Source of the DNA: Staphylococcus phage vB_SsapH-Golestan-100
Sequence record: LC647030.1
Strand: one strand, 5' to 3'
Length of the DNA stretch: 64,000 nucleotides
Below are positions 3,249 to 29,207 of the stretch, piece after piece. Position numbers and translations under genes: made by a program. The notes under the pieces are model-generated. The model was not told the origin of the DNA, ran no database searches, and saw nothing but the letters and a program-made list of their open reading frames with translations. Positions within the stretch are counted from its first letter, which is position 1, and the number at the start of each line of letters is the position of its first letter.

Positions 3249-4561
3249 GTCTTCCTCTAATACTGTTAAGCTAGCATCTTCATATGGAAACGATTATACC
3301 GCTAGTTTCCTAGTACTTTAACACTCATTTAAGAGTCGGTCTAGACTATCTCATACTCCTTAGTTTAGGTTAAGGAGTCTCTGCTTTACACTATAAATTT
3401 AGTTTCATCTTTAAATACGCACTAACTTGATTATAAGTTTTCTGAGTATAAGGTATTTCTATAAGAGTTATGTTATTATTCTTAGCATACTTTCTTTTAA
3501 TGTCATCTCTGATTACTTGTTCTTCATACTTCTCAATACCTCCAAATATTTCTACAGGAGTGAAGTGTTGTATTCCTTGATACTCTAGTAAAAATTCTTT
3601 ACCTTCGAGAGATGGTATATGAAAGTCATAGGATAATTTTCTTGAATGCAGAAGGTCTTCATACTTCTTTTGTTCAGTATAAGTTATTTTGTTATCATCT
3701 AAGAATCGTCTAACATAACTCTCACCAACAGATATATTACAGTAAGAACAGCAAGGCTTTTCTAGTAGATGATAAGGAGTGACTAATAACTCCGTCTTAC
3801 ACTTGTTATGTCTAACCTTTATCTTTGTAGTACTGCCCTTATATTCACCTAATACTGTATACTCATTTTTGTATTTATTAAAAACATCCTTCTCAAATTC
3901 TTTTTGTGTTTTGCGTTGAGAAAGACCTTGCAGTTTTCTCATACATTTAAAACATCTAGTTTTTGAAGAAAGAAAAGCGTTAGGAGTAACTTGCCACTCA
4001 GTTCCACAAGATTTATGTAAAAGAGTTACTTTATTATATACACCGTTATAGCTACCTATAAGTTGGTACTCACCTTTAGTTAGGTCATACAGCTCTTTTT
4101 CAAATTGAGCTGTTGTTTTGGCTTTAGCTCCTCTTTTTTTATTTCTACATAAAGGACATCTATTACCATCTAAAAAACCCTTAGGTGTTACCATGTACGT
4201 ATTAGAACAAGTATTATGCTTAATTTTAATTTTTGTTCTATTGTTAATGTAGGTTCCTTCAACTACGTACTCATTATTTACTAAGGTATATACTTCTTTT
4301 TCAAATTGTTCTTGTGTTTTCTTTATTGACATGTTACTCTGCTCCTTTAATTTATAGTTTTTATCTAGTTTTCACTATCTCCTTTTAGATAGCTATCTAG
4401 AAACTTAGTCGTTGGACATTTATCTTGATTTAATCATAGCATTAATAGTTAACTATGTCAAGAATTTAGTAACGGATTGTCATATACTTTTTAAAGTACT
4501 TAGAGTTCCCCGTTTTAACAGAGTTTTCTACCGCCATTACTGACGATAGGGGCTGAAATTA
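3249..4561 (-). mobile_element. Group I intron (td-like, subgroup IA) interrupting terL and carrying a homing-endonuclease ORF. Boundaries approximate: 5' splice site after plus 4562, 3' splice site within 3249-3293.
   Basis: Read on the minus strand. The exon ends GGGU and can pair with an IGS GCCC to form P1. AAAACGGGGAAC...GACAAUCCGU (plus 4505-4516 region) closely resembles the T4 td P3/P4 sequence. An R-like element GUCCAACGACUAAG lies at plus 4404-4416 and a second R-like element GCAGAGACUCC at 3374-3384. An S element GAGAUAGUCUAGACC lies at 3338-3352. Confidence 0.65.
3391..4332 (-). CDS. Intron-encoded homing-endonuclease-like protein. It has three about 55-aa zinc-ribbon repeats and a C-terminal PD-(D/E)XK-like domain.
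   Basis: The module FEKE.Y....EY...G.Y.N...K..H..C...W.V.P..FL....C..C appears three times. The C-terminus carries YDFHIP...EYQG...RDDIK. The ORF has its own RBS (aaaggagcag) and lies between the terL exons inside the ribozyme. Confidence 0.55.
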   Translation of the reverse strand: MSIKKTQEQFEKEVYTLVNNEYVVEGTYINNRTKIKIKHNTCSNTYMVTPKGFLDGNRCPLCRNKKRGAKAKTTAQFEKELYDLTKGEYQLIGSYNGVYNKVTLLHKSCGTEWQVTPNAFLSSKTRCFKCMRKLQGLSQRKTQKEFEKDVFNKYKNEYTVLGEYKGSTTKIKVRHNKCKTELLVTPYHLLEKPCCSYCNISVGESYVRRFLDDNKITYTEQKKYEDLLHSRKLSYDFHIPSLEGKEFLLEYQGIQHFTPVEIFGGIEKYEEQVIRDDIKRKYAKNNNITLIEIPYTQKTYNQVSAYLKMKLNL

Positions 4562-21326: not shown

Positions 21327-23156
21327 ATGGCAGAAATACAATACCCACGTTATGACATTAGTAGACCTCACACAGTCATTAAAACAGACACAAGTAATTT
21401 AAGTGGTACTGCAAGTGACAGTGAGAAAGTTCTTTGCCTTATCGGTAAGGCAGAGGGAGGAAAACCTAATACAGTCTATGAAATAAAAAATATTACATTT
21501 GCAAGAAGCATTTTCCGTTCAGGTGAACTGATGGATGCAATTGAGTTAGCTTGGACAGGCTCTCCTGATGCAACAGCAGGAACAATTCTTGCGATGCGTT
21601 TAGAGAATGCAGAAGCATCTCAGTTAACAACAACTGGAATGAAAGTCCTTTCTAAGGTTTACGGTAGTGTATCTAACAATATCTCTGTAGCATTAGAGGA
21701 TAACACAATCTCAGACTCAAAACGTTTAAAAGTTAATTTCCCTGATGATAACAGATTTGAAGTATACGACAACTTAGGTAACATCTTCCAAATCCATTAT
21801 ACGGGTGATGAGGGTTCAGCATTCTATAGTGTTGTTAAAGACCCTGAAACTCATAAATCAACTAAATTAGTTTTATCAGTAGGAAGCAAGATTGATGCTG
21901 AAGAAGCTAAGAAAGGTAATGTTGTTTTAGGAGCTACTCAAGCAGAAGACCCTGAAAATGTAAGTGTTGAAGCAGGTGAGGAAAGTGCTAATGTTACAGC
22001 CACTCAATCAACTCCTGAAGGCACTGGAAGAATTGCTAAAATTTACGACTTAGCTAAAACATATAGAGATGCTAACTCACTTATCTCTGACATTAATAAC
22101 TTACCTGACTTTGAAGTTAAAGTTTCTCCATTTGGTGATAAGAATGTTGATACTACATCTTTAGATGAAGCAACTAACGTAAGTGTTAAAGAAGACTTTG
22201 TTTACCTTAAAGCTATTTTTGGTGACATCAAACTTCAAACAGAATACAGTGACCTTGTAGAATTTGAAGAAGTTCAAGGAGAGAAAATTGAAGCTTTTGA
22301 TGAAACATCGTTAACAGGTGGTTCTAATGGAGACCCTGTTACTACTTGGTCAGATAAATTTGCTAAGTTTGCTAATGAAGGTGGTTACTACTTAGTACCA
22401 TTAACTGATAAAGAATCTGTTCATGCAGAGGCAGGACACTTTGTAAAAGAACGTTCTGACATTGGTGAACCTATGAGAGCTATTGTAGGTGGAGGATTCA
22501 AAGAATCTAAAGAAAAGCTCTTAGCTCGTGTATCAGGACTAAAATCTAACCCACGTGTAATGCTTATTGCTTCTAGTGGTGAGTTCTCAATGCAAGATGG
22601 TCGTGCTTTACATGTACCAGCTTACTTGATGGCTTCTGCTATCGGTGGATTAGCTACAGGTTTAGACATTGGTGAATCTATTACATTCAAACGTTTATTC
22701 TTGAATAATCTAGACATTGTTTTAGATGGTACAGGTTTAGACCAATTGAATGATAATGGTATTGTACCTATTGAATTTGTACGTAGTCGTACTGAGACAT
22801 TCTTCCGTATTGTCAATGACATCACTACTTACAATGATAAATCAGACCCTGTTAAACAAGAGATGTCAGTCGGAGAAGCTAATGACTTCTTAGTATCTGA
22901 ACTTAAAGTTAGACTAGACAATAGATTCATTGGTACAAGAACATTTGCAACAAGTGCTTCACTTATCAAAGACTTCTTAATTGGATACTTGAATGAGAAA
23001 GTTGCAGACCAAGAAATCCAAGGATTTGATGCTGAAGACATCCAAGTTAGTGTAATTGGAAATCAAGCTCAAATTGCTATGACAGTTTACCCAATCAGAA
23101 GCTTCAAGAAAATTACTGTTAGCTTGGTTTACAAGCAACAAACATTACAAGCCTAA
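21327..23156 (+). CDS. Tail sheath protein
   Basis: 609 aa, immediately upstream of the tube gene, with size and position typical of myovirus sheath proteins. Confidence 0.6.
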   Translation: MAEIQYPRYDISRPHTVIKTDTSNLSGTASDSEKVLCLIGKAEGGKPNTVYEIKNITFARSIFRSGELMDAIELAWTGSPDATAGTILAMRLENAEASQLTTTGMKVLSKVYGSVSNNISVALEDNTISDSKRLKVNFPDDNRFEVYDNLGNIFQIHYTGDEGSAFYSVVKDPETHKSTKLVLSVGSKIDAEEAKKGNVVLGATQAEDPENVSVEAGEESANVTATQSTPEGTGRIAKIYDLAKTYRDANSLISDINNLPDFEVKVSPFGDKNVDTTSLDEATNVSVKEDFVYLKAIFGDIKLQTEYSDLVEFEEVQGEKIEAFDETSLTGGSNGDPVTTWSDKFAKFANEGGYYLVPLTDKESVHAEAGHFVKERSDIGEPMRAIVGGGFKESKEKLLARVSGLKSNPRVMLIASSGEFSMQDGRALHVPAYLMASAIGGLATGLDIGESITFKRLFLNNLDIVLDGTGLDQLNDNGIVPIEFVRSRTETFFRIVNDITTYNDKSDPVKQEMSVGEANDFLVSELKVRLDNRFIGTRTFATSASLIKDFLIGYLNEKVADQEIQGFDAEDIQVSVIGNQAQIAMTVYPIRSFKKITVSLVYKQQTLQA

Positions 23157-23228: not shown

Positions 23229-23556
23229 ATGGCATCAGAAAAGAAACAGTCTGTACACAGTGGTAATACCGTCTACATTATGGTAGGTGGAAAAATCGTT
23301 GGTCGTGCACAATCAGCTTCAGGACAACGTGAATATGGTACTACAGGTGTTTATGAAATTGGTTCTATTATGCCTCAAGAACACGTATACTTACGTTATG
23401 AGGGTACAATCACAGTAGAACGTTTACGTATGAAAAAAGAGAACTTTGCTAAGTTAGGCTTTGCTTCACTAGGTGAAGAGATTCTTAAAAAAGACGTAAT
23501 TGACCTTGTAGTCGTAGATAATTTAACTAAAGATGTTATTATATCTTACCACGGTT
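23229..23556 (+). CDS. Tail tube protein, exon 1. The in-frame TAA at 23556-23558 is proposed to be intronic.
   Basis: RBS aggagag. 109 codons. Exon 1 ends GGUU and can pair with the intron IGS GACC. Confidence 0.5.
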
Positions 23557-23791
23557 AAAATAATTGACCCCTCTATTAGGAAACTAATAGTTGAATCATA
23601 CCTTACAGAAAAAATAGTTTAGATACCATAAGCTGAGAAAAAGCTCTAAATTGATTAGAGTGCTAAGTGGTTAATAATCGGAAATCAGCATCGAAGCTCC
23701 TGTAAAATGGATAACGTTCAACGACTATAATAGGTAGACCTTAAATGGTTATGGTATAGTCTAGCCCCTTTAAAATATATCGAAAGATAGG
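23557..23791 (+). mobile_element. Small ORF-less group I intron in the tail tube gene
   Basis: R element GUUCAACGACUAUA at 23716-23730. S element GGUAUAGUCUAGCC at 23753-23766. P1 is the hairpin GGUU|AAaauaaUUGACC. The 5' region ugaCCCCUCUAU resembles the terL intron cagCCCCUAUCG. A short open frame follows, ending exactly at the terminator. Confidence 0.55.
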
Positions 23792-23904
23792 GTATAAGCG
23801 GTAGCGCACAGAACTATAATGAAGAATTCCGAGTAGGGGAAATCGTAACAGAACAAATTGCTTTCCTTTACCTATATGCTAGTGATAAAGCTTCAAGCAA
23901 GTAA
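23792..23904 (+). CDS. Tail tube protein, exon 2. Predicted spliced product is about 146 aa.
   Basis: After splicing, codon t|gt is followed by ISGSAQNYNEEFRVGEIVTEQIAFLYLYASDKASSK and then a stop. The intrinsic terminator starts 5 nt after this stop. Confidence 0.45.
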
Positions 23905-23908
23905 TACT

Positions 23909-23941
23909 AAGAGACCTAAATATAAGGTCTCTTTTTTTTTG
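23909..23941 (+). terminator. Rho-independent terminator
   Basis: agagacct/aggtctct stem followed by T9. Confidence 0.65.
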
Positions 23942-24008
23942 TCTAAGGATATAGACCCTATGTTATATTAAATTGTATAAGAAAAGACTATACAAAAAAC
24001 TCCTTGTA

Positions 24009-25166: not shown

Positions 25167-28100
25167 TTGGATAATTATAGAATTCGAGTCACAGGTGATG
25201 GCTCCAATGCTTTAAATGAGATACAAAAGATTAATAAAGCAATGGACAATATTGACAAACGTGACAGTGGTAAAGGATTTAAAGGAATAGAAAGTGCCTT
25301 AAAGAATGTTAGTAAGTTGACAGATGAAATCAATAAATCTGTAGACAATGCTAGTAACAAAAGCGTACTATCACAATCGCAACTAGAAAAAGACCAAAAA
25401 AATATACAACAAACTTTAGATACGTTAAGAGCTCTTAGAACGGAAGTAGACAGAGCTACTAAACAAGCATCTAAAAAAGGATTAACATTAGACCCTCAAG
25501 CTCAACGTTCTTATAAAGCACTAGGTAAAGAAATAGATAAGATAGCTCAGAAGAGAGACATGTTAGGTAGTAAAAATGTAAAACCTGATGCTTCTATGAG
25601 ACAAGCTATTAATGATGCTAAGGTGTTTGAAAGCAGAACTCAAAAAGCTACAGACGCATTACGAGAGCAACAACGTGTAGCTAAACAGTTACAAAGAGAT
25701 AATAGGGAAGCAACAAGAGCAAGTCGTATTGTAAACGATGGGTTAACTAATGGGAGAGTTACATACAATGATAGACAACGATTGAACTCTGCATTAGATA
25801 AAGGTCGTGACGTAGGTGGTACACCAAGCTATTACAAGCAACAGTCTAATAAAATACAAAGTAATATAGAATCATCAGGTTCTGCTATTAGAGAAAATAG
25901 AGAAAAGATAGAAGCATTAAACAAAAGACCTCAAAATTTGGAGAACAAAGAACGTAAAGCTCAATTGATGGATGAGAATGAAGAGCTAGAAAAATTAATT
26001 AGAAACCTTCAAAAAGCTAAAGGTCGTTATGAGGACATGGATGCTACAGCTAAGAAGAACTTTAATGCTACTAAAACAGAAACAGGTAGAGATTCATTTG
26101 GTACCCAAGCTGAAAGAGGTTCCTTTAAAGCAACTATGGCTGATAGAGCACCATCTATAGCAATGGCTGGTATTGGAGCTACAGGTTTTGCCCTAACAAG
26201 TAGCTATATGAAAGGTGATACCATAAATAAGAGCAATAGAGACGACATGTTCTTTAGAGGTAATCTTATGGGAGAAACAGACTATGGTCAAGTCCGTAGA
26301 GATATGTTCTCTCAGGGCATAGATGCTGGTTATGGTTATAATGCAGAAAACTTAAATGCAATGGCTGGACAATATCTAGAAGTTAATGGATACCAAGGTA
26401 AAAAATCTATGGAAGAGGGGCTTACTCAGTACCAAAGAGCAGGTCGTTCCCTAAATATAGACAATGAAGCTTTCCAACAGTCTTATACTAATATTGGTAG
26501 AACAGGTGGTATGCAAGGTGGTCAAGAGATTGCTGACTTTACCAATACTTTTGTAGGTGCCTTAGACAAATCTAAAATGACTCATAAAAGTGAACAACAG
26601 TTAAAAGCTTTAGATTCAATGGTATCACAAATGGGTAGTACAAGAACCCTAGGAGCTAATGATGTTAATGAGATGACTGCACTACAAGGTGTAATGGCTG
26701 AGTCAGGTCTCAAAACCTTACAAGGAGAAAAAGGTGCAGATGCTGTTAATAAAATCTCTACAGGTCTGCAATCTAATAAAACTGACCCATTTAACTTACA
26801 GGCTATGGGATACGGTTCAGAGTTAAATAGCGTTTCAGGTTTGAGAGAAGCTATGCGTAGAGAAGATGAAGGAGCAACACCTGAGAATATTAAAAGATTA
26901 ATAAGCCAATCAGGTGGCGGAGACATGTCTGCTATTGCTTTACAAACACAGTTTGGTCTATCTTCAGAACAAGCAGACGGTATGTTAAAACTATACGATG
27001 AAGGTAAGTTAGACAAAAAGAATATTGACAAGTACATGGAAGACTCTAAGAAAAAAGGCAAGAAAAAAGCTGATAAGGACTCAGACAATGTTAAGGACTC
27101 TAAAGAAAATAAAGCTAATAAAAATGAAGTTGCAAGAGAAAGCCAAAATTCTAGAACAAGAGAAAACGGTCAATGGGTTGATGATTTAGCATCAGCAGGT
27201 ACTAGCTTAAACAACGCTGGATACCTATTAACTGCGGCCGCTGGAGCACTTATGGTCTCTGCTACTGGAAGTGCGCTGATGGGTGGACTAAGTTCTATGG
27301 TTCGTAAGTTAGGTTCTAAAGGTATTAAAGGTACAGGTCAACATTACGGAGGTAAAGTCAAAGAGTTTGGTTCTAAAGCCAAAGAATGGGGCGGTAATGT
27401 TAGACGTGGCGGAAGTGATAACGCTGGTAAAACTTCTAAAGGTGGAGAATCTACTAAAGGTGGAACTAAAGGCGGTCAAACAGACTCTATGAGAGACTTT
27501 AAAACCTTTGACAAAGATTCTACATCAGGCAAGACTAAAAGAGGTAGAATGAGAGGCTTTGGTAAAACTATTACTGATGCTGGTAGAAGCTTCGGAGACT
27601 TTATAGGTCTAGGTGGAGATACCGCTAAAAACCAAAATGGTCGTGGACTAGGAAGAAGTGCTACAGGTAATACAAGACGTGCTAAGTTTGGTAAAGGTCT
27701 AAAAGACTTTATCTTTAGAGACCCTATGAGTAAAGGCGGAGCAGGTATTATATCAGGAGGTAGCAAAGCTGGTAATATAGCCAAAGGAGCTGTAGGAAAA
27801 CTAGGGCTTATTGGCGCAGGTATAAACGCTATAGACATTGGAAGCTCACTAGCAAAAGGTGATGACAAAGCAGTTTCTAGTAAGTTTGGTAATTTCATGG
27901 GAGGTATAATAGACCCTCTAGGTCTAGGTTACGGTGATGGTCTTAAGAAACATGCTACAGAAACAGCTGACAAAGCTCAGAATAATAAAGGCTTATTTGG
28001 TAAAGGTGGCTTAATAGACTTTAGTTGGAGTAATGGAGATAAAGATAGTAAAAACCAATTTAAAGACTCTATACTAGGCAAACCTATCTCCAAAGCTTGG

Positions 28101-29207
28101 GGAGGAGTTAAGTCCTTCTTTAGTGGTGGAGACGATGATAAGAAAAAAGATGGTAAGAAAAAAGATAAAACTAAAGGTAGAAAAGTAGACAAAGGAAGTC
28201 ACGTAGGTGCTTTTTCTAAGGCCTCAACAGCACCTCTTATTTCAGGCGTAGGTATGAAGGTAGGAATGTTCCCTACTAATACTGATGATGAAGAGAAAGA
28301 GAAAGGTGACAAGGCTAAAGGTAATAAGAAGAAAAAAGACCGTATGTCAGCAGAAAGACTACGTGAGAAGAACAATACTACTGAAACTAAAAACCTTTCT
28401 GTTTACAGAAACCTTTTAGAAAGAGCTGAACAAGTCCTCAATGATGCTAAATCACTTGACATGAATGGAGGAGACTCTGAAGGTGGAGACTCTGAAGGTG
28501 GTTCTGCTTCAGATGTAAAAGGTAAAGGAAAAGAAAAGATTTATAAATTCCTTAAAGGTAAAGGGTTATCTGACAACCAAGTATCTGCTGTTATGGGTAA
28601 CTTGCAACAAGAATCTCAGCTAGACCCTAAAGCTGTTAACAAGTCCAGTGGAGCTTTTGGTATTGCTCAATGGATGGGTTCTAGAAAATCAGGCCTTGAT
28701 GCACTAGCTAAGAAAAGAGGTAAAAAGAATACCGACCTGGATGTCCAACTTGATTATTTATGGTCAGAGATGGAAAAAGGGTATGACGCTGACATGCTGA
28801 AAAATGCAGGTTGGAGTGATAAAGCAAGTCTAGAAAAGAATACTGAAGCATTTGCTACTGGCTTTGAGCGTATGGGAACAGATGAAGCCATGATGAGTAC
28901 TCGTATCAGCAATGCTAAGAAATATAAGAAACAGTATGGTAAAGGCGGTAAAGGTGGAGGAGTTGTACTAGGTGGTTCAGGAGGAGGAGTTGCAATGGCT
29001 TCTCTTGACAATAACGTAACACCTATGGTAAACTCTTCACAGGGAGGAAATAACTCTTCAAATACAGATAACCGTACTTACAACGTTACAGTTAATGTCA
29101 ATGGTGCAGGAGACCCGCAACAAGTGGCAGAAAGTACAGCTAGCAAAATAGAGAGTATGTTACAGAATTCCAATGACTTCTTCTCTAGACAGCAAAACAA
29201 GAGATAG
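25167..29207 (+). CDS. Tail tape-measure protein with a C-terminal lysozyme-like (lytic transglycosylase) domain
   Basis: TTG start with RBS ggtaggtga. 1346 aa with coiled-coil and Gly-rich segments. ESQLDPKAVNKSSGAFGIAQWMG is an SLT/lysozyme-like motif at about aa 1150-1240. Confidence 0.7.
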   Translation: MDNYRIRVTGDGSNALNEIQKINKAMDNIDKRDSGKGFKGIESALKNVSKLTDEINKSVDNASNKSVLSQSQLEKDQKNIQQTLDTLRALRTEVDRATKQASKKGLTLDPQAQRSYKALGKEIDKIAQKRDMLGSKNVKPDASMRQAINDAKVFESRTQKATDALREQQRVAKQLQRDNREATRASRIVNDGLTNGRVTYNDRQRLNSALDKGRDVGGTPSYYKQQSNKIQSNIESSGSAIRENREKIEALNKRPQNLENKERKAQLMDENEELEKLIRNLQKAKGRYEDMDATAKKNFNATKTETGRDSFGTQAERGSFKATMADRAPSIAMAGIGATGFALTSSYMKGDTINKSNRDDMFFRGNLMGETDYGQVRRDMFSQGIDAGYGYNAENLNAMAGQYLEVNGYQGKKSMEEGLTQYQRAGRSLNIDNEAFQQSYTNIGRTGGMQGGQEIADFTNTFVGALDKSKMTHKSEQQLKALDSMVSQMGSTRTLGANDVNEMTALQGVMAESGLKTLQGEKGADAVNKISTGLQSNKTDPFNLQAMGYGSELNSVSGLREAMRREDEGATPENIKRLISQSGGGDMSAIALQTQFGLSSEQADGMLKLYDEGKLDKKNIDKYMEDSKKKGKKKADKDSDNVKDSKENKANKNEVARESQNSRTRENGQWVDDLASAGTSLNNAGYLLTAAAGALMVSATGSALMGGLSSMVRKLGSKGIKGTGQHYGGKVKEFGSKAKEWGGNVRRGGSDNAGKTSKGGESTKGGTKGGQTDSMRDFKTFDKDSTSGKTKRGRMRGFGKTITDAGRSFGDFIGLGGDTAKNQNGRGLGRSATGNTRRAKFGKGLKDFIFRDPMSKGGAGIISGGSKAGNIAKGAVGKLGLIGAGINAIDIGSSLAKGDDKAVSSKFGNFMGGIIDPLGLGYGDGLKKHATETADKAQNNKGLFGKGGLIDFSWSNGDKDSKNQFKDSILGKPISKAWGGVKSFFSGGDDDKKKDGKKKDKTKGRKVDKGSHVGAFSKASTAPLISGVGMKVGMFPTNTDDEEKEKGDKAKGNKKKKDRMSAERLREKNNTTETKNLSVYRNLLERAEQVLNDAKSLDMNGGDSEGGDSEGGSASDVKGKGKEKIYKFLKGKGLSDNQVSAVMGNLQQESQLDPKAVNKSSGAFGIAQWMGSRKSGLDALAKKRGKKNTDLDVQLDYLWSEMEKGYDADMLKNAGWSDKASLEKNTEAFATGFERMGTDEAMMSTRISNAKKYKKQYGKGGKGGGVVLGGSGGGVAMASLDNNVTPMVNSSQGGNNSSNTDNRTYNVTVNVNGAGDPQQVAESTASKIESMLQNSNDFFSRQQNKR

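Follow-up and report, generated by a model that had tools for sequence, protein, structure and literature searches.

The window, i.e., the whole 64-kb stretch of DNA that was analysed, belongs to a Twort-like Staphylococcus myophage (Herelleviridae/Twortvirinae-type), and the S. capitis phages S2G3 and Fi4S2 are 96% identical to it across 24 kb. Its tail tube gene is located between the genes for the tail sheath and the tape measure and can be read as two exons with an intron in between:

21327-23156: tail sheath gene
23229-23558, plus strand: tube ORF of 109 aa, ending at a TAA whose T is position 23556
23229-23556, plus strand: tail tube exon 1, comprising codons 1-109 and the first base (T) of the Cys110 codon
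23557-23800, plus strand: ORF-less group I intron of 244 nt, both junctions fixed by the intron-free S2G3 allele
23801-23904, plus strand: tail tube exon 2, comprising the last two bases of the Cys110 codon, 33 codons and the stop codon at 23902-23904
23909-23941, plus strand: intrinsic terminator of the tube gene, a hairpin at 23909-23933 followed by a T run
25167-29207: tape-measure gene

Gene callers annotate solely the 109-aa ORF, while the true product comprises 143 aa, and the coding sequence ends 5 nt upstream of the terminator. According to the ORF list, no ORF of at least 25 aa lies wholly within 23557-23800, and the tube intron contains no homing-endonuclease ORF such as a self-mobile intron would carry. 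Both junctions can be read from S2G3, in which the insertion site of the window is uninterrupted and reads ...CACGGCTGTAGTGCACAA, ...TATCACGGCTGTAGTGCACAAAAT. Therefore, the exons are joined at U23556/G23801, and G23800 is the terminal base of the intron, as is typical for the omega-G of group I introns. Precise removal of the intron restores a conserved and uninterrupted gene, as seen from the S2G3 allele and from the alignment with 8q01_A. Judging from these boundaries and from homology, 23557-23800 can be assigned to a group I intron that interrupts the Cys110 codon behind its first base. The 23556/23801 product has 143 aa and is 100% identical to the protein of the S2G3 exons, with the exon 1 protein by itself showing 100% amino-acid identity to the S2G3 tube protein. 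Its residues 1-141 align gap-free with the solved tube protein of phage 812 (8q01_A, 142 aa; E = 1e-73), and PHROG 985 is matched as well. The ligated junction would have the sequence GGTTGTAGCGCA, and the junction peptide of the spliced tube protein would read ...ISYHGCSAQNYNEEFR.

The original prediction, made from the sequence of the window, was right in its central idea of a tail tube gene that a small group I intron without an ORF divides in two, and also in that a short downstream exon completes the protein and is followed by a terminator, which we find as the hairpin at 23909-23933 plus T run. However, it had ended the intron at 23791, which would join 23556 to 23792 (junction sequence GGTTGTATAAGCGGTAGC) and yield a tube protein of about 146 aa with a 37-codon second exon. 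G23791 is also a G, and the junction to 23792 is indeed in frame, but only by coincidence, and the Ile-Ser-Gly that it would add after Cys110 is absent from S2G3, L095 (a contig of the Logan assemblies, see below), phage 812, RODI, Twort and all 80 viral-contig homologues. Moreover, the 3′ boundary was compared with six introns at the same site (RODI I1, SA11, L031, L054, L055, and L058) and with the Logan contigs. The other introns at this site share the tail GGUAU(A/G)(A/U)A(A/G)CG↓GU (the arrow marks the splice site), and the 8-nt tail after P9, ending in ...CG↓, is kept in all related introns. An intron that ends at 23791 is therefore very improbable. Since the 3′ splice site lies 9 nt further downstream, after G23800, as indicated by the S2G3 allele and the same-site introns, the tube protein has 143 aa, and exon 2 contributes the last two bases of the Cys110 codon and 33 codons. 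The alignment to intron-less tube proteins, which had been proposed as a check, supports the C-terminal exon, albeit as part of a protein of 143 aa rather than 146 aa.

It could also be argued that there is no intron at all, that the tube protein ends at 109 aa, and that the frame behind it belongs to a small gene of its own or is entered by recoding. The gene callers give only the 109-aa ORF, and several GenBank records do likewise for their own interrupted tube genes. However, only the spliced product covers the solved 142-residue tube protein from one end to the other, exon 2 has neither a start codon nor a ribosome-binding site of its own, and intron-free alleles exist. Furthermore, a comparison of the window, S2G3 and L095 in the spliced frame yields 19-23 differing positions without any amino-acid change, and the 18 differences (17%) between the window and L095 in exon 2 are likewise all synonymous. 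As the differences are solely synonymous, exon 2 is under purifying selection in the spliced frame, and we regard the probability of an uninterrupted gene of 109 codons as practically negligible.

The structure of the intron was read in the context of an alignment (A1) of 13 members, i.e., the window element and 12 relatives. Nine of these relatives are located in tube genes, namely RODI I1/I2, pSco-10 I1/I2, vB_SscM-1, SEP1, Golestan I1, and Quidividi I1/I2, whereas the others reside in endolysin genes (two IMG/VR contigs) and in one Enterococcus phage nrd gene. The elements of the window copy are the following:

23553-23569, plus strand: P1 hairpin, GGUU↓AA (23553-58) with the internal guide UUGACC (23564-69), from sequence and MFE fold
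23573-23590, plus strand: P2 hairpin CUAUUAG/CUAAUAG with a GAAA tetraloop at 23580-83; six of seven pairs with compensatory changes
23599-23603, plus strand: P3 5′ strand UACCU, pairing with AGGUA at 23732-36; within the family UACCU/AGGUA, CACUU/AAGUG, CACAU/AUGUG, and CAACU/AGUUG
23604-23606, plus strand: deletion scar, from the alignment with L095 and A1
23625-23671, plus strand: GAAA-tetraloop receptor hairpin (11-nt-type), UAAGC (23629-33) and GCUAAG (23662-67)
23651-23656, plus strand: UUGAUU in and beside the hairpin loop, candidate replacement for the P4 5′ strand; the AAA before it resembles the lost J3/4
23678-23690, plus strand: orphaned 3′ strands of P5 (UCGG) and P4 (UCAGCA), the partners of which are UCG and UGCUGG in the parent
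23692-23716, plus strand: P6 (CG/CG, from the family structure) and P6a (UCC/GGA, read from A1)
23717-23728, plus strand: J6/7 (UUCAAC) and P7 5′ strand GACUAU, the R element
23732-23750, plus strand: P3 3′ strand AGGUA (23732-36) and P8 hairpin GACC/GGUU (23737-50)
23756-23761, plus strand: P7 3′ strand AUAGUC, the S element; A-U to G-C covariation in three family members
23766-23792, plus strand: P9, CCC/GGG around UAUC-GAAA-GAUA, with the L9 GAAA loop at 23782-85
23800, plus strand: terminal G (omega-G), tail ...GGGUAUAAGCG↓GU

The common structure of A1 comprises P2, P3, P4, P5, a P5b hairpin, a second GAAA hairpin, the receptor hairpin, P6, P7 (crossing P3), P8, and P9. In this structure 98.5% of the cells are paired, and 36 of the 57 pairs display double-sided (compensatory) changes, whereas shifted structures reached only 32-42% paired cells and no shuffle attained the observed covariation. 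On these grounds the family can be regarded as genuine group I introns, which have spread through tube, endolysin and nrd genes of Herelleviridae. The window copy has the P1 that is expected for a group I intron, and the same P1 is found in RODI I1, SA11 and L095. Its P3-P7-P8-P9 domain with the P3/P7 pseudoknot is complete, and these helices covary across the 13 members. In the receptor hairpin, the outer helix is ACCAU/GUGGU and the distal stem CUCUAA/UUAGAG (23644-49/23655-60). The counterparts of P6a in A1 are CCUC/GAGG in the nrd intron of Enterococcus phage phiEF17H and CUCU/GGAG in RODI. In contrast, the P4-P5-P6 domain is incomplete: P6/P6a and the Q strand are present, whereas J3/4, the P element and the P5 5′ strand are deleted. 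The window copy is a group I member by descent, as it equals a full-length member except for the deletion and two loop substitutions, but not in the canonical structural sense.

These findings largely agree with the elements that had been predicted. R (GTTCAACGACTATA, 23716-23729) and S (GGTATAGTCTAGCC, 23753-23766) are present in the sequence, P7 is formed by GACUAU/AUAGUC (23723-28 with 23756-61), and the P1 hairpin GGUU↓AA places the splice-site U at 23556, with a U23556·G23566 wobble. The core had been called canonical, which is correct for P1, P2, P3, P6, P7, P8, and P9, but not for P4 and P5, the 5′ strands of which are missing. The suggested Infernal search with the Rfam model found RF00028 only when run by E-value, and there the window copy scored 16.3 bits (E = 0.12), i.e., below the gathering score of 50 bits. 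At gathering thresholds Rfam gave nothing across the whole 64 kb, and the phage members of this intron family generally lie under the RF00028 gathering score.

Some further structural features can be noted. The P5 extension of the family (A1 columns 153-212) contains a textbook 11-nt GAAA-tetraloop receptor, UAUGG/CCUAAG, in which two C-G pairs covary, and the receptor of the window and the endolysin introns is UAAGC/GCUAAG. In L9, all members have GAAA or GAGA; for L2, the window copy and the Logan parents have GAAA, and the remaining members of A1 GUAA or GUGA. A pairing between J2/3 and J6/7 (GUUGAAU/GUUCAAC), which appeared in the MFE fold, was rejected because it is without covariation in phiEF17H and pSco-10.

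The origin of the incomplete core can be deduced from closely related introns. An exact look-up of the 109-aa ORF gave 16 Logan contigs, assembled from independent sequencing runs (SRR31223580, SRR35580704, and others). The eight contigs that were fetched (L095-L102) carry, wherever the contig reaches (one ends within P2), a full-length intron of 316 nt at the same site, following an exon 1 that is identical to that of the window at the amino-acid level. Relative to the intron of L095, the window copy shows 23651 C>U and 23653 A>G as the sole substitutions, along with a clean deletion of 72 nt after 23604. The lost 72 nt, which correspond to A1 columns 62-133, comprise J3/4, the 5′ strands of P4 (UGCUGG) and P5, the whole P5b hairpin, and of a GAAA-capped hairpin the 5′ strand, whereas P1, P2, P3, P6, P7, P8, P9 and the receptor hairpin are kept, as are the P4 and P5 3′ strands. 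The parent, in contrast to the window copy, has J3/4, P4, P5, P5b and the second GAAA hairpin, and is followed by a gene for a 331-aa I-HmuI/NUMOD-like nuclease. It matches RF00028 with 30.3 bits (E = 6e-6), with P3, P4 and P5 aligned. The near-identity to the L095 intron, the 72-nt gap and the match of the parent to RF00028 together show that the window intron is a 72-nt deletion derivative of a canonical 316-nt group I intron. Outside the intron, the window and L095 differ by 35 substitutions in 1428 nt of the sheath gene and by one in exon 1. Neither the missing 72 nt nor a second P element was found elsewhere in the window by BLAST and motif scans. The deletion variant occurs in none of the fetched Logan contigs, and strings of 22-31 nt specific to the junction and loop of the window had no exact match in viral contigs or metagenomes. 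Looked up as exact sequences, the sheath protein of the window had no entry, and the 152-aa protein encoded downstream occurred solely in an S2G3-like contig.

A second intron of this type is present in phage vB_SsapH-Golestan-105-M. Among the 36 R-element introns of all fetched loci, the P element is absent only in the window copy and in tube intron 1 of Golestan-105-M (Golestan I1; L007 1169-1400). The latter has a deletion of 101 nt compared to the near-identical intron 1 of pSco-10, which takes away J3/4, P5b, a hairpin and the 5′ strands of P4, P5 and the receptor. It has the same left end point as the deletion in the window, right after P3 plus 2 nt, and a substitute for P4 is not visible in it. 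The deletion in Golestan I1 is independent of that in the window.

The deletion may also have killed the ribozyme. The window would then represent a defective allele, i.e., a non-viable or minority genome or an assembly error, from which only the truncated 109-aa protein is made. The absence of J3/4 and of the 5′ strands of P4 and P5, the uniqueness of the variant to the window, and the drop of the RF00028 score from 30.3 to 16.3 bits are in line with this. However, apart from the two loop substitutions the rest of the intron matches a parent of the working type, and the exons are intact with only synonymous differences. Moreover, the independent 101-nt deletion in Golestan-105-M, which is an isolated phage, suggests that such deletions are tolerated, and a clean 72-nt deletion along with two nearby substitutions is atypical for an assembly error. 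We therefore consider a defective allele unlikely.

Introns in virion structural genes had been thought uncommon and for this reason worth documenting, which is wrong for Twort-like phages, since Twort orf142 as well as phage 812 and its relatives have them (PMC11878797; PMC6445280). In Twort, the tail tube protein is encoded by orf142, which contains three introns and shows exon skipping (PMC11878797). The phages 812, A3R, 676Z, Fi200W, and P4W have two non-coding introns in the tube gene and an adjacent nuclease gene, and mutants derived from 812a have lost the introns together with this nuclease gene (PMC6445280). Twort orf142 and the tube gene of the window are the same gene of the same subfamily. 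The Twort introns are likewise group I introns, clustered in the 3′ third of the gene, and in Twort a nuclease gene follows immediately downstream. The introns I1-I3 of orf142 were reportedly described by Landthaler and Shub in 1999. The Twort introns are ORF-less and self-splicing, and I2 has P7.1/P7.2 and belongs to subgroup IA2. However, Twort is uninterrupted at the site of the window (...CACGGTTGTAGTGCT), its three introns are located further 3′ and are of a different sequence type, and none of them lacks P4/P5, unlike the window copy. The introns of phiIPLA-RODI, SA11, pSco-10, vB_SscM-1, SEP1 and Quidividi belong to the same family as that of the window, while those of the 812 group are described in PMC6445280. 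RODI I1 and SA11 I1 occupy exactly the site of the window, have P1, J2/3 and P3 in common with it, and are 82% identical in the 3′ half. In contrast to the window copy, the kayvirus-type relatives are of full length (298-350 nt) with P4 and P5 intact, and are mostly inserted at other positions. What is new is therefore this structural variant, which is unusual, whereas the kind of element is already known.

The same insertion site is occupied in RODI I1, SA11, the IMG/VR contig L031, and in L054, L055, and L058, and it seems to be a homing target that is conserved beyond Staphylococcus phages. In the latter three IMG/VR contigs, the tube protein of which is ~63% identical and the sequence context apparently Bacillus-type, the intron likewise follows the T of a Cys codon and has the tail ...GGUAUAAACG↓GU; these introns contain an extra insertion between P7 and P3′. 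In Twortvirinae, introns accumulate in the 3′ third of the tube gene (codons ~110-135), a hot spot that has at least seven insertion positions within ~25 codons, as counted from L001, L002, L003, L004, L005, L006, L007, L009, and the window. Up to three introns are present per tube gene, and even near-identical phages differ in the sites used, e.g., Cys110 in the window versus the Tyr133 codon in S2G3.

The pattern of exon differences suggests how the intron came to the window. Up to position 342 or further, the coding sequence has a single difference to the L095 type, so that exon 1, the intron and no less than the first 14 nt of exon 2 belong to this lineage; it is then of the S2G3 type at 357-386, and of its own type beyond 386. 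Such a mosaic of L095, S2G3 and own types is as expected for intron transfer with co-conversion of the flanking exon, and the intron was acquired by recombination or homing. A free-standing nuclease gene (311-437 aa, I-HmuI/NUMOD-like) directly follows the tube gene in S2G3, RODI, pSco-10, Twort and the Logan parents. In the window this gene is absent (23905-23990 compared to L001 2420-3523 and L095 2335-3330), and the terminator of its tube gene corresponds to the one that follows the nuclease gene in S2G3.

The tube gene is not the only interrupted gene in the window. A second group I intron splits the gene for the large terminase subunit at ~4561-3291 on the minus strand. Exon 1 is the ORF 5608-4559, exon 2 runs into the ORF 3248-2484, and the joined frame is open. 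This intron contains a 313-aa ORF (4332-3391), which probably encodes a homing endonuclease. The end of the 5′ exon, ...CUGGGU, pairs with GCCC, the tail is ...GGUAUAAUCG↓UUUCC, and an R-like CAACGACUA and an S-like AUAGUCU are located at 4414 and 3349, respectively. At its 3′ end, short stretches resemble relatives of the tube-gene intron. The terminase intron was missed by Rfam at gathering thresholds. A further R-like motif, TAACGACTA, is found at 616 on the minus strand.

If the tube intron splices, the reaction can be assumed to proceed as follows. The GGUU at the end of the 5′ exon would pair with the guide UUGACC to form P1, in which the U23556·G23566 wobble would mark the cleavage site, and an external guanosine held in P7 would attack after U23556. 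The terminal G23800 would then move into the guanosine site and the free 3′-OH of U23556 would attack after G23800, so that ...CAC GGU U is joined to GU AGC GCA... and the 143-aa tube protein can be made. As the 5′ strands of P4 and P5 are part of the universally conserved core and are absent here, self-splicing cannot be assumed. Nevertheless, the window copy probably still splices, by one of three routes (A to C) that can be proposed from its sequence.

In route A there would be no P4, and the catalytic P3-P9 half would work with a broken P4-P6 scaffold. Golestan I1, in which a substitute pairing is likewise not seen, would agree with this. According to PMC6257700, which cites Ikawa et al. 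(2000), the catalytic centre resides within P3-P7 and P4-P6 is a scaffold, and group I ribozymes without P4-P6 have been engineered (Ikawa, Shiraishi and Inoue, 2000, as cited there). Like the window copy, these ribozymes keep the catalytic P3-P9 half while the P4-P6 scaffold is disabled. However, they are laboratory constructs, whereas the lesion in the window is natural, partial (P6 and the 3′ strands remain) and located in an essential late gene. The constructs of Ikawa, Shiraishi and Inoue from 2000 are also said to be active only under helper conditions in vitro.

In route B, P4 would be re-created by pairing of the mutated loop UUGAUU (23651-56) with AAUCAG (23683-88), giving an H-type pseudoknot. 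Both substitutions that separate the window copy from its parent fall into the 5-nt loop of the receptor hairpin (AAACUAAUU to AAAUUGAUU), which is ACUAA in the parent and AUUGA in the window. The mutated loop copies the start of the deleted J3/4-P4 (AAAUUGCUG), and the AAAUUG... motif is complementary to the orphaned 3′ strand of P4. The window forms six contiguous pairs between UUGAUU and AAUCAG, compared to five of six with a central A·C mismatch in the parent, and the duplex energy changes from +1.7 (parent) to -2.4 kcal/mol (window). A helix of at least 6 bp with the orphan strand would arise from two random substitutions with a chance of 3.3%, or of 0.9% if the preceding AAA is included, and the receptor-hairpin loop is variable in relatives (L100). 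The re-creation of P4 by the loop substitutions is thus suggested, but not proven.

In route C, the core would be re-registered: UACC (23624-27) would pair with GGUA (23733-36) as P3, AUAA would serve as J3/4, and GCUGA (23632-36) with UCAGC (23685-89) would form P4 in the ancestral register. GAAAAAG would then be J4/5 and the CUCUAA/UUAGAG hairpin P5, which would restore the canonical strand order, while in this fold the tetraloop receptor is sacrificed. The P4 duplex energies are -2.4 for route B and -5.4 for route C compared to -6.6 kcal/mol for the original P4, and both substitutes are weak. The energies of the whole folds, -12.0 for route C versus -10.7 kcal/mol for route A, do not separate the candidates. 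As a further candidate we looked at UUCCGA in the 3′ exon (23827-32), which could form six Watson-Crick pairs with UCGGAA as the 5′ strand of P5. It was rejected because chance alone would give ~2-3 such matches and because the strand order does not fit P4-P5.

Taken together, a tube-gene group I intron that is a 72-nt deletion derivative and would splice by route A, B or C is in our view the best explanation, and a fairly probable one. We are more cautious with the wider reading, which we put at somewhat less than an even chance, that in an essential virion gene a naturally occurring group I intron splices in vivo although its P4-P6 domain is broken or rewired. Here, the rewiring could consist of a P4 5′ strand gained by two loop substitutions or of a receptor strand re-registered as P3/J3/4/P4. 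The second, independent deletion in Golestan-105-M with the same left end would make the loss of this core part a recurrent and tolerated event.

As a tube-gene intron as such, the element is one more member of a well-documented set. For annotation it matters that gene calling routinely yields a truncated ORF of 109 aa, and that the corrected product has 143 aa. As the full-length parent is present in public data, a clean pairwise comparison of both introns is possible. To our knowledge, the dispensability of the group I core in the cell has so far been approached only with engineered ribozymes. If the phage is viable, the window would offer a natural test of how much of a group I core can be missing in the cell, or be restored by two point mutations.
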